Shown piece by piece: positions 1 through 11,681 of a stretch of DNA of 64,000 nucleotides. Position numbers and translations under genes: made by a program. A model generated the notes under the pieces. That model worked only from the letters and a program-made list of their open reading frames with translations. It was not told where the DNA came from and made no database searches. The DNA lies in assembly GCA_963828165.1 (NCBI GenBank), contig CAWHDR010000001.1, positions 992,001 through 1,056,000 of the forward strand. The letters run 5' to 3'. This stretch comes from an uncultured Chloroflexia bacterium. GTDB taxonomy: Bacteria; Chloroflexota; Limnocylindria; Limnocylindrales; CSP1-4. Numbering within the stretch: position 1 is the stretch's first letter; each line of letters begins with the position of its first letter.

Positions 1-365
1 CCGACTGCGCCGGCGATCTTCGCTTCGTCTTCCTCGGCTGCGCGCCGGCCGATCTCAGGGTTCCCTCCGGACCCGAGGCCACCGGTGATGGCCTCGCCGA
101 TGCGGATCTTCGTTTCGGCGCTCGATCGGCGCAGGGCCTGGGCATCGGTGTTGCAGACGACGAAGCTCGCTGCCCCGATCCGCGCGTCGACCATGCGATC
201 GACCGCGTTGCTCCCGCCGCCGCCGACACCGACGACCCGGATCGCGCGCGTCTCGGGCGTGCGCGCATGGCGAATCCAGCCGGGGATGGCGATCAGGAGG
301 CGGAGGGACAGCAAGGCGGCCAGGCCGATGATGACCACGGCCACGGCCTCGCCCGGGACAGGCAC
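1..365 (-). CDS. ftsZ: FtsZ-family GTPase, N-terminal part (runs off the window edge), with a hydrophobic N-terminal extension
   Basis: Manual translation from GTG365: [114 protein letters not shown]. The GVGGGGxNAV, NTDAQAL and GLGxGxNP motifs are FtsZ signatures. In-frame TAG at 375-377 lies upstream. Not in the ORF track. Confidence 0.9.
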
Positions 366-448
366 CGATCGATCCTAGGCGGGTTGCGGCAGCAACCCCC
401 ACGAAATCCGTACCGGTGAAGGGGGCCCCTTCGTCCCCCTCGTCTCGA

Positions 449-871
449 TCAGAGCAGCCGGTCAGCCGGCGCTTCGGCGGGATCGACGGCCGCTTCGCAT
501 GTCGGGCAGAACCAGCGCGCCTCGAGGGCCGTGCCGCACGTGAGGTGGCGCAGCGGTTCTGCGTCGCTCCCGCCGCGACTGCCCCAATCGGCGAGCAGGC
601 GCAGCGCCGAGGCGAGGTCGCGGCCGTCGGCCGTGAGGTCGTAGGCGAGTCGGGTCGGTCGCTCCTGGTAGGGAGTCGATCGGACGATCCCCGCACGTTC
701 CAGCCGGCGAAGTCGGTCGGTCAGGATGTTCGGCGCGATGCCGGAAAGGGTCTCAGTGAGCTCGCCGAAGCGACGTGGGCCGTCCAGCAGCGCCTCGACC
801 ATCAGCAGGCTCCAGCGGTCGCCGACGCGATCGAGCGCGGCCTCGAGCGGGAGCGGTCGACGGTCCGTCAT
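449..871 (-). CDS. HxlR-family winged-helix transcriptional regulator
   Basis: ALDRVGDRWSLL, GPRRFGEL, GIAPNILTDRLRRLE, YDLTADGRDL and a C-terminal HxxCG/CPTC. Start chosen at ATG871. Confidence 0.85.
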   Translation of the reverse strand: MTDRRPLPLEAALDRVGDRWSLLMVEALLDGPRRFGELTETLSGIAPNILTDRLRRLERAGIVRSTPYQERPTRLAYDLTADGRDLASALRLLADWGSRGGSDAEPLRHLTCGTALEARWFCPTCEAAVDPAEAPADRLL

Positions 872-922
872 GCGCATCGATGGTAATCGGAGCTGAGGGC
901 TTGTCATGCGGTCCTGTCAGTA

Positions 923-10460: not shown

Positions 10461-11266
10461 CCGAGATCCGCCTCGAGGAACTTGGCTTCGTGTACCCGGA
10501 CGGGACGCGCGCACTCACTGAGGTGGATCTGACATTCGCTCCGGGCCAGTCGGCGGCCATCGTCGGCCAGAACGGCAGCGGCAAGTCGACGCTCGCGCGA
10601 CACCTCAACGGCCTCCTCCGCCCCACCGAGGGCCGCGTCCTGCACGACGGCCAGGACATCGCCGGACAGCGAGTCGCCGCGCTCGCCGCGCGCGTCGGCA
10701 TCGTATTCCAGAACCCGGACCGGCAGATCTTCGCGGGCAATGTGCGCGATGAGGTCTCGTTCGGACCGCGGATCCTCGGTCGGAAGGAGGCGGACGCCGT
10801 CGCTGCTGGGACGGCGGCCCTGGAGAACGTCGGCCTCAGCGAATCGGTGGACGCCAATCCATACGACCTGGGCTACTCTCGGCGCAAGCTGCTGGCGATC
10901 GCCTCCGTTCTCGCCATGGACACGCCGGTGGTGGTCCTGGACGAGCCCACCACCGGCCAGGACGCCCGCGGCGTCGAGCGCGTCCAACGGGTGATCGCGA
11001 ACCTCGTCGACGACGGTCGCACGGTGGTCGCGATCAGCCACGACATGCGCTTCGTCGCCGAGTCCTTCGCGCGGGTCGTGGTCATGGGCGGCGGTCGGGT
11101 GCTCCTCGACGGGAGCCCAGCCGAGGTCTTCGCCGAAACGGCCTGGCCGGTCCTTGCTTCGACCTATCTCGAGCCGCCGTACGCGGCCCGCGTCGGGGCG
11201 CGACTCGGTCTGGGCCCGACGCCCACCGAGACCGCGCTCGTCGCGGCACTCGGGCCTCGCGCCTGA
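10457..11266 (+). CDS. ECF ATPase A' component
   Basis: GQNGSGKST, FQNPDRQIF, LDEPTTGQD; ATGA overlap with the previous gene. Confidence 0.9.
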   Translation: MTEIRLEELGFVYPDGTRALTEVDLTFAPGQSAAIVGQNGSGKSTLARHLNGLLRPTEGRVLHDGQDIAGQRVAALAARVGIVFQNPDRQIFAGNVRDEVSFGPRILGRKEADAVAAGTAALENVGLSESVDANPYDLGYSRRKLLAIASVLAMDTPVVVLDEPTTGQDARGVERVQRVIANLVDDGRTVVAISHDMRFVAESFARVVVMGGGRVLLDGSPAEVFAETAWPVLASTYLEPPYAARVGARLGLGPTPTETALVAALGPRA

Positions 11267-11279
11267 GCCGACCCCCGAG

Positions 11280-11681
11280 TCAGCGTCGGCCGACGACGAG
11301 GAGCAGGAACGAGGTCTCGATCACGTCGATCCCGGCGATCACCGCCGCGATGACCAGGGGCAGCGGGTGCCCGAGGGCCCAGCCCGCAGCGGCCGTGAAG
11401 GCGGCCACGGCCAGGAACGCGAGGCGGACCGCCCGGATGAGCCTCGGGACGTCCCGCTCCGAGCCTTCCGCGAGTCGCGCCATGGAACGCGCCAGCAGGA
11501 CGACCCCGAGCGCCACCGAGAAGCCCACGAGCGCGGCCCGCAGCAGCGCCGGGGGCGTGACCAGGGCATCGAGCAGGCCCTCGTTCCAGCCCACGACCGT
11601 GGCGCCCACGATGGCAAGCGCGCCGAGCGCGAGCGCCACGACGGCACCGAGCCGCGGGCGGTCGGCGGTCGCACGGCTCAT
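11280..11681 (-). CDS. Small membrane protein, unknown function
   Basis: About four hydrophobic segments; directly downstream of mec in the same orientation. Confidence 0.6.
   Translation of the reverse strand: MSRATADRPRLGAVVALALGALAIVGATVVGWNEGLLDALVTPPALLRAALVGFSVALGVVLLARSMARLAEGSERDVPRLIRAVRLAFLAVAAFTAAAGWALGHPLPLVIAAVIAGIDVIETSFLLLVVGRR

Follow-up and report, generated by a model that had tools for sequence, protein, structure and literature searches.

The 64,000-nucleotide stretch analysed here (the window; G000:C1:992001-1056000), from the genome of an uncultured soil Chloroflexia bacterium, raises the question of whether a bacterial FtsZ can carry its own membrane-spanning anchor and, if so, what such a protein does beside the canonical FtsZ of the same cell. 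At the left edge of the window the minus strand encodes the beginning of a gene that a first-pass annotation, made from the letters of the window, read as an FtsZ paralog with a transmembrane-like N-terminal helix. The feature is real, conserved and, within the literature searched, unreported; it belongs to an uncultured lineage only, and its function is what we infer. That the gene encodes an intact, membrane-anchored FtsZ paralog is predicted with high confidence. As to its role, our preferred reading, to which we assign a probability of about 0.6, is that the paralog is an accessory, lineage-restricted, self-anchored polymerising FtsZ that still binds FtsA and joins or modulates the FtsA/FtsZ ring.

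The FtsZ paralog and its N-terminal helix

The gene starts at GTG365 and continues beyond the window; in full (G000:C1:991010-992365) it encodes an intact protein of 452 amino acids. Its part within the window comprises the following features.

3..365, minus strand: first 121 codons of the FtsZ paralog, with matches to TIGR00065, PF00091 and PF12327; the gene extends leftward out of the window as far as G000:C1:991010
279..347, minus strand: predicted transmembrane helix, residues 7-29 (19-residue Kyte-Doolittle mean 2.67; Eisenberg hydrophobicity 0.76, moment 0.15; Arg22 and Pro28 near-invariant)
243..278, minus strand: basic juxtamembrane linker from the helix to the GTPase domain, residues 30-41 (net charge after the helix +1 to +7 in 37/37 clade members)
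3..242, minus strand: start of the FtsZ GTPase domain, residues 42-121 (Pfam Tubulin match; T1 box GVGGGGSN at window 207-230)

This arrangement, an FtsZ GTPase N-domain preceded by about 40 residues that include a hydrophobic stretch, agrees with the first-pass reading of 3..365. The TIGR00065 equivalog score of the paralog is 386.9 bits against a cut-off of 295.2, with residues 38-347 covered, and matches to PF00091 (Tubulin; E 5.1e-43) and PF12327 (FtsZ_C; E 2.4e-31) extend over residues 42-200 and 250-343, respectively. The T7 synergy loop of the NxDxxD type completes the GTPase site of the adjoining subunit; it is present here as NLDFAD, together with the G-box GGGTGSG, and both motifs are kept in 37/37 members of the helix-bearing clade delimited below. 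Decay of the gene beyond the visible part, envisaged in the first-pass annotation, is contradicted by the intact 452-residue frame with all catalytic motifs kept.

The C-terminal peptide of FtsZ proteins follows a disordered linker and binds FtsA, ZipA or SepF. The first-pass annotation expected it to be missing, which proved wrong: the core of the paralog is followed by a proline-rich linker of ~95 residues and the peptide DDLDVPSFLRR, which aligns with DDLEIPSFLRR of the canonical FtsZ, and then by eight further residues. The peptide is kept in 33/37 clade members and in 117 of the 120 best homologues (the best 120 clusters of 8000 scored candidates in a database search, 63-100% identity), and at least six extra residues stand beyond it in 86 of these 120. 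Among solved chains 2vam_A is the closest (E 3.7e-101, query residues 41-353); none extends over residues 1-40. Judged from its sequence, the paralog is a complete FtsZ that possesses the GTP-binding and T7 catalytic motifs, the FtsZ_C domain, the linker and the FtsA-type C-terminal peptide.

Exactly two tubulin-family genes are encoded by the genome. The other one, canonical FtsZ (P0002; 411 aa, 52% identical to the paralog), is located in a complete division and cell wall (dcw) cluster comprising mraY, ftsW, murB, ddl, ftsQ, DUF1290, ftsA, UPF0047, ftsZ, ylmE and yggT. A separate ftsZ of this kind, which the first-pass annotation had proposed to look for, means that the window gene is a paralog and not the sole ftsZ with a wrong start. 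In this cluster (L006:10082-12139), DUF1290 stands between ftsQ and ftsA, and UPF0047 between ftsA and ftsZ, an unusual insertion in the ftsA-ftsZ pair. FtsA, encoded once, in the dcw cluster, is the sole established FtsZ tether detected; no match in this genome, which is 87.7% complete, was obtained with the Pfam models for SepF, MinC, ZapA, ZipA and EzrA. Extra FtsA-domain matches, considered as a possible second FtsA, turned out to be two MreB paralogs and one other actin-fold open reading frame (ORF). Both MreB paralogs are full-length (G000:C1:1305046-1306011 and 1595163-1596140).

The N terminus of the paralog consists, in order, of six residues (MPVPGE), the hydrophobic run, a basic patch and the FtsZ T1 box. 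Three hydrophobicity measures agree on predicted membrane insertion, in line with the transmembrane-like helix proposed at the outset. The Kyte-Doolittle mean of 2.67, the best over 19 residues, compares with a maximum of 1.31 in the canonical FtsZ of the genome; the summed apparent insertion free energy is -1.7 kcal/mol; and the most hydrophobic 18-residue window has an Eisenberg mean hydrophobicity of 0.78 over 37 clade members (minimum 0.71). In the same 37 members the hydrophobic moment averages 0.14 (maximum 0.23) and the hydrophobic span is 19-30 residues. Uniform hydrophobicity, low moment and such a span are a transmembrane rather than an amphipathic signature. Within the helix a conserved Arg lies two-thirds along, and a Pro-Gly-Trp end leads into the basic patch; the first strand of the GTPase domain follows only ~11 residues after the end of the helix.

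The net charge before the helix is zero or negative in 37/37 clade members (mean -0.73), and after it ranges from +1 to +7, again in 37/37 (mean +3.7); no basic n-region, as in signal peptides, was found before the helix. According to the positive-inside rule, the basic flank is on the cytoplasmic side. The acidic or neutral flank before the helix and the basic flank after it thus predict an N-out/C-in topology with a cytoplasmic GTPase domain. The predicted helix has the properties of a bitopic reverse signal anchor, namely ~20 hydrophobic residues, a short non-basic N-tail and a basic flank after them, and the paralog is probably a bitopic membrane protein oriented N-out/C-in. A homologous helix is present in 37/37 clade members and in 0/50 other FtsZs of the set, as well as in 119/120 of the best database homologues; in the remaining one (P0086) the G-box was missed by the motif filter. 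The N-termini comprise at least five sequence types (A to E), alignable as one homologous segment.

The first-pass annotation also allowed for a mis-assigned start. The in-frame TAG that it had noted is located at 375-377, 9 nt upstream of GTG365. In the window gene, no ATG, GTG or TTG follows the helix before the GTPase domain begins; the latest other start codon is a TTG at codon 18, itself within the helix. Orthologs keep the helix and start at the same aligned codon, which is GTG in 36/37 members and ATG in one. The conserved position of the start codon and the lack of a later start before the GTPase domain both argue against mis-assignment. In a 45-position alignment of the N-terminal region, L18, L19, R22, P28 and R35 are near-invariant, and R22, P28, P37, E38 and R40 are invariant in 62 type-A-like homologues. 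The G+C content at third positions of the N-terminal codons is 0.93, in the coding frame only, and the ratio of nonsynonymous to synonymous differences (pN/pS) over these codons is 0.55 for type A (28 pairs) and 0.40 for type B (78 pairs). These values indicate moderate purifying selection on the helix codons, as expected if hydrophobic swaps are tolerated.

Origin and distribution of the helix-bearing clade

Homologous loci occur in Chloroflexota metagenome-assembled genomes, several of them Candidatus Limnocylindrales; where database names are given for the homologues, they are plain "cell division protein FtsZ". Maximum-likelihood trees were built from the core domain only, with the N-terminus excluded. 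A single branch sets the 37 helix-bearing rows apart, with a Shimodaira-Hasegawa-like approximate likelihood ratio test (SH-aLRT) support of 99 in the 87-row tree, and an ultrafast bootstrap (UFBoot)/SH-aLRT support of 100/99 in the 54-row tree, so that all helix-bearing FtsZs form one clade. A split comprising this clade and the canonical FtsZs of the window's own family (f1) received 100/99 in the 54-row tree, while the position of the clade beside or within the f1 canonical FtsZs is weakly placed (support 82, 87 rows). Identical duplicates, over-long or X-containing frames (L022, L025, L066), one frame that was too short (L027) and 17/80 loci failing a two-motif filter, mostly from Leuconostoc and Fructobacillus, were excluded from the trees, and a further 33 near-duplicate or long-branch rows from the 54-row tree. 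This topology indicates that the helix arose once, when a canonical ftsZ was duplicated in one Limnocylindria-like Chloroflexota family or at its base.

The distribution was determined by a profile search with the N-terminal segment. In family f1, the helix paralog is present in 24/301 sampled genomes, G000 counted, and in 8/49 genera; among high-quality f1 genomes the figure is 16/132. It has neither the dcw location nor the broad occurrence of a canonical FtsZ, both of which the canonical copy has. In the class sample the paralog was found in 19/401 genomes, and by family, with G000 not counted, in 17/137 (f1), 0/16 (f2), 0/92 (f3), 1/153 (f4) and 0/2 (f5); the f4 match is marginal (21 bits, 158-aa frame). 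The phylum sample yielded 2/401 genomes, both of the window's genus, and no clear match outside family f1 was obtained in the class and phylum samples (401 genomes each). The window's genus has the paralog in 12/28 sampled genomes in addition to G000, and it is absent from several assemblies of 2-8 contigs. The global library contains 13 representatives, a number to be read with its 50% identity clustering in mind, which can merge clade members together or with canonical FtsZ. An FtsZ match as such was present in 193/201 class genomes, a tally that includes the unpublished genomes G151, G087, G123, G067, G106, G159 and G096, on which none of the other results depends. Canonical FtsZ is also encoded by 14/15 carriers examined, the exception being G435, which is 80% complete.

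Of 124 alignment columns with a conservation of at least 90% in the 50 other FtsZs, 98 are retained by the helix-bearing copies, and only five fixed differences separate them from the canonical copies of the family. Their core domains have diverged faster: over the same genome pairs the median divergence is 4.4 times that of the canonical copies, and between G000 and G089 it amounts to 0.196 for the helix-bearing copy and 0.022 for the canonical one.

Additional FtsZ copies were observed in two genomes. Genome G191, of the window's genus, contains three FtsZ genes (L089, L090, L098): a type-A and a type-B helix-bearing copy, diverged from each other, and a canonical one. Genome G134, of another genus in the same family, has two FtsZ matches (C24:1785-2738 and C82:29038-29958; 58% and 60% identity), both beginning near query residue 38; another duplication or contamination is possible. 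The helix profile had no match among 14 sampled genomes of this genus (g5).

Expression signals and genomic neighbourhood

Two elements upstream of the start codon may be relevant to expression.

372..377, minus strand: TAGGAT, a -10-like hexamer, 6 nt (CGATCG) before GTG365; its first three bases are the in-frame stop
400..407, minus strand: conserved upstream block ATTTCGTG, ~35-43 nt before the start; the block, exact or in close variants, recurs in types A, B and C, whose upstream genes differ

A TAnnnT hexamer, mostly TAGACT, is located 6-7 nt before the start in 34/34 of the clade loci listed, despite differing upstream genes. Throughout the G000 genome, TANNNT peaks at exactly -12 from starts, where it precedes 111 of 1983 long ORFs as compared with 2-8 at background offsets; the start codon is ATG in 60 of these 111 ORFs and GTG in 48, and TAGGAT ranks among the most frequent hexamers at the peak. 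Both the conservation and the peak support the first-pass interpretation of TAGGAT as a -10 box. Its AGGA was also considered as a Shine-Dalgarno sequence and rejected, being present only in the closest kin, with TAGACT, TACACT or TAGATT at this place in the others. Leaderless genes are known from other high-GC bacteria. With a spacing of 6-7 nt between the -10 box and the start, the mRNA of the paralog is probably leaderless. The canonical ftsZ has GGAGGA 7-9 nt before its ATG and a long leader. From the TANNNT peak, leaderless-type genes seem to be common in G000, a Limnocylindria-like genome.

A scan of window positions 300-520 for two-hexamer sigma-70 promoters and intrinsic terminators returned 0 promoters and 0 terminators, so it is the comparative data that carry the -10 reading. 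The intergenic RNA folds no better than shuffled sequences (z -0.65). A regulon search for further genomic copies of the upstream block with a downstream TANNNT found one occurrence in G000.

The gene upstream of the paralog is the following.

449..907, minus strand: HxlR-family regulator gene (PF01638, E 2.3e-23), not conserved beside the paralog outside close kin

The upstream gene is therefore an HxlR regulator and not ftsA or ftsQ, and the neighbours as a whole (the HxlR gene, a 143-aa membrane ORF and NUDIX) place the paralog outside a dcw cluster, both as first described. The synteny table contains no neighbour gene common to the subclades. The 143-aa ORF, located downstream of the paralog, is present in 18/21 genus genomes, including two without the paralog; since it occurs regardless of the paralog, it was rejected as a partner. 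This ORF, situated just left of the window (L005:14522-14953, minus strand), belongs to no Pfam family, contains about three hydrophobic segments and has its own TACACT box near the start. The paralog is a single gene with no conserved partner and not a multi-gene module; self-anchoring stands as a prediction, with the C-terminal peptide kept in addition.

An empty site was found in four members of the genus, with the gene order HtrA-HxlR-143aa ORF-NUDIX-Aldh, the HxlR gene adjoining the 143-aa ORF and no remnant between them; three of these genomes have no helix-bearing copy and one has a copy elsewhere. The paralog together with its promoter is a presence/absence indel of ~1.45 kb, which either gain or loss would fit. 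The junctions of the indel showed no flanking repeats, and a tblastn search with the first 60 residues for carriage by mobile elements gave no match in plasmid or phage collections.

Two other loci were observed at some distance. A ROK-family gene is split into two ORFs of 143 and 142 aa (L005:10786-11217 and 11225-11653, plus strand), for which a frameshift, a stop or an assembly error could account. The region L005:3417-9150 (plus strand) encodes a 1425-aa hybrid histidine kinase with five GAF and two receiver domains and, after it, a receiver-adenylate/guanylate cyclase and an Hpt protein; this group lies 6-12 kb downstream of the paralog.

Known systems and possible functions

With canonical bacterial FtsZ (TIGR00065) the paralog shares PF00091 and PF12327, the G-box, the T7 loop, the disordered linker and the C-terminal peptide. 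It differs in the ~40-residue N-terminal extension with its predicted transmembrane helix, the non-dcw location, and the GTG start with a leaderless-type promoter in place of an ATG after a Shine-Dalgarno sequence; it is also accessory and fast-evolving, with extra residues after the peptide in many homologues.

Adaptor-free membrane binding has been described for OdinFtsZ1, which uses an N-terminal amphipathic helix (PMC12583498), for Mycoplasma group 1E FtsZs, which tether themselves by an N- or C-terminal amphipathic helix and are described as having no C-terminal peptide (bioRxiv 10.1101/2023.08.29.555414), and for chloroplast FtsZ1, cited in PMC12583498 as binding through an amphipathic helix. 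The paralog resembles these proteins in its predicted mode of attachment, which is N-terminal also in Odin and some mycoplasmas. The helices of all three, as presented in these sources, are short, amphipathic and peripheral, whereas that of the paralog is long (19-30 residues), uniformly hydrophobic and of low moment, and should therefore span the membrane; a mean moment of 0.14 at a mean hydrophobicity of 0.78 is not that of an amphipathic tether. The C-terminal peptide, absent from the Mycoplasma proteins as described, is kept in the helix-bearing clade.

ZipA, the gammaproteobacterial bitopic tether of FtsZ, has an N-out topology. Described as an integral membrane protein (PMC12583498), it is similar to the paralog in having a single N-terminal transmembrane anchor and a cytoplasmic bulk and in tethering FtsZ polymers to the membrane; it is, however, an adaptor for the FtsZ C-terminal peptide and not a polymerising GTPase, and no ZipA_C domain was found in G000. 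The engineered mts-H-FtsZ-YFP, with an N-terminal membrane-targeting sequence (Osawa, Anderson and Erickson 2009, as described in PMC5979038), likewise carries its tether at the N-terminus of an otherwise normal FtsZ. According to that description, the construct is artificial, with an amphipathic helix and a spacer and without the natural C-terminal peptide context, while the tether of the paralog is a natural predicted transmembrane helix with a short linker and the C-terminal peptide retained.

A crenarchaeal FtsZ-like protein with N-terminal transmembrane helices is also a fusion of a tubulin/FtsZ-superfamily protein to an N-terminal transmembrane region, but it is described as single, highly diverged, partly disrupted and outside the authors' tree (Makarova and Koonin 2010, PMC2875224), whereas the proteins considered here form a bona fide bacterial FtsZ clade with intact motifs. 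The same source treats FtsZl1 and FtsZl2 as families apart from FtsZ proper, with FtsZl1 operons including vWA-domain, protein kinase or OmpA-domain genes. Membership in these families was rejected, as the paralog is joined in the tree by its own family's canonical FtsZs and has no vWA, kinase or OmpA neighbours. In the part of a Chloroflexota genome survey available to us, FtsZ appears only among marker models (PMC10608941). A full-text search of the available literature, supplements not covered, turned up no bacterial FtsZ that naturally possesses a membrane-spanning helix. To this extent the first-pass suggestion of something undescribed is upheld, as a single accessory gene and not as a multi-gene module.

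In the accessory, self-anchored FtsZ that we favour, the helix would insert N-out/C-in as a reverse signal anchor and would thereby hold the GTPase domain, by its N-terminal face, no more than ~11 residues away from the inner leaflet. GTP-driven polymerisation would take place on the membrane, FtsA would still be recruited by the free C-terminal peptide, and the paralog could act as a built-in anchor or brake of the FtsA/FtsZ division ring, with canonical FtsZ not replaced. It would be translated from a leaderless mRNA and expressed independently of the dcw operon. Survival of the C-terminal peptide in spite of fast evolution suggests continuing importance of a partner that binds it, of which FtsA is the simplest candidate, and retention of an FtsA-type peptide implies that the paralog is not solely self-anchoring.

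Several observations weigh against this interpretation. An N-terminal tether puts a different filament face on the membrane and is described as reversing bending and chirality in vitro (PMC5979038), which could hamper straightforward co-assembly with a ring that constricts. A plain anchor would not usually have a conserved Arg in mid-helix, so a more specific function is possible, and pN/pS of 0.4-0.55 reflects moderate constraint only. Patchy distribution and 4.4-fold faster evolution mark the paralog as dispensable and would also fit a non-division role. Genome G411 carries a frameshifted type-B copy (L117), split near residue 110. The two-hexamer sigma-70 consensus scan finds no promoter before the paralog, and, G000 being 87.7% complete, tethers missed by the search may still exist. 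The split copy of G411 could be either a pseudogene or the product of an assembly indel error.

As the main alternative, the paralog might form an independent membrane-remodelling or shape filament outside the Z ring, with the opposite face down and with outward bending or a preference for the opposite curvature, for example in budding, vesicles, protrusions or resistance to constriction. When an artificial tether is placed at the N- instead of the C-terminus, liposome deformation is reported to turn from concave to convex and vortex chirality to reverse (PMC5979038); the linker between helix and domain is very short, the expression signals are unlike those of the dcw ftsZ, and fast evolution and patchiness are expected of a non-core function. 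The FtsA-type peptide kept in nearly all of the best homologues argues instead for FtsA or another peptide-binding partner, and no conserved neighbour genes point to a separate machine, so that we consider this alternative unlikely. In a related and equally tentative proposal, the paralog might be a natural counterpart of the engineered N-tethered FtsZ, with the opposite face down, outward bending or counter-constriction, and FtsA recruited by the free peptide. If this is true, these bacteria would possess a second FtsZ-based force generator of opposite sign.

A role as negative regulator is improbable. A membrane-fixed FtsZ could co-assemble with or cap canonical filaments, slow treadmilling or hold subunits at the membrane, and so delay division under some condition; the invariant T7 loop and G-box, as longitudinal-interface motifs, make hetero-association plausible, the separate promoter and the conserved upstream block, which could be a regulator site, are compatible with it, and so is the dispensability of the paralog. 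Against such a role, the residues needed for catalysis are preserved, although their loss is common in dominant-negative paralogs, and the single genomic occurrence of the upstream block with a -10 box provides no link to a stress regulon.

Still less probable is that the hydrophobic segment is not a membrane anchor at all and represents a mis-assigned start, a cleaved signal peptide or a protein-protein interaction helix. The charged Arg within the stretch could be cited in its favour, and membrane insertion is predicted from sequence only. Against it are the upstream in-frame stop, the position of the last alternative start inside the helix with none between helix and GTPase domain, and the conservation of the start position and the -10 box in the 34 loci listed; in addition, there is no basic n-region, the basic patch after the segment would block export, and the hydrophobic moment is low. 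The least credible explanation, a neutral or decaying duplicate without a function of its own, could draw on the patchy distribution, the faster evolution and the frameshifted copy of G411, but the frames are intact and all motifs invariant in 37/37 members across deep divergence, the helix is kept in the best 120 database clusters (119 measured), the promoter, start and C-terminal peptide are conserved, and G191 retains two diverged helix-bearing copies together with a canonical one.

The orientation of FtsZ filaments and their generation of force have been argued largely from artificial constructs with a relocated tether. The present clade offers a natural, conserved FtsZ with a predicted N-terminal membrane-spanning tether, a very short linker and a normal C-terminal peptide, coexisting in one cell with canonical FtsZ and FtsA. 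As a small protein that should be easily expressed, it would allow a direct test of how tether position relates to curvature, treadmilling direction and ring function. The helix is invisible in current annotation because the homologues are named as ordinary FtsZ. Its predicted origin suggests that duplication followed by a simple 5' extension can be enough to equip a core cytoskeletal protein with a membrane anchor.

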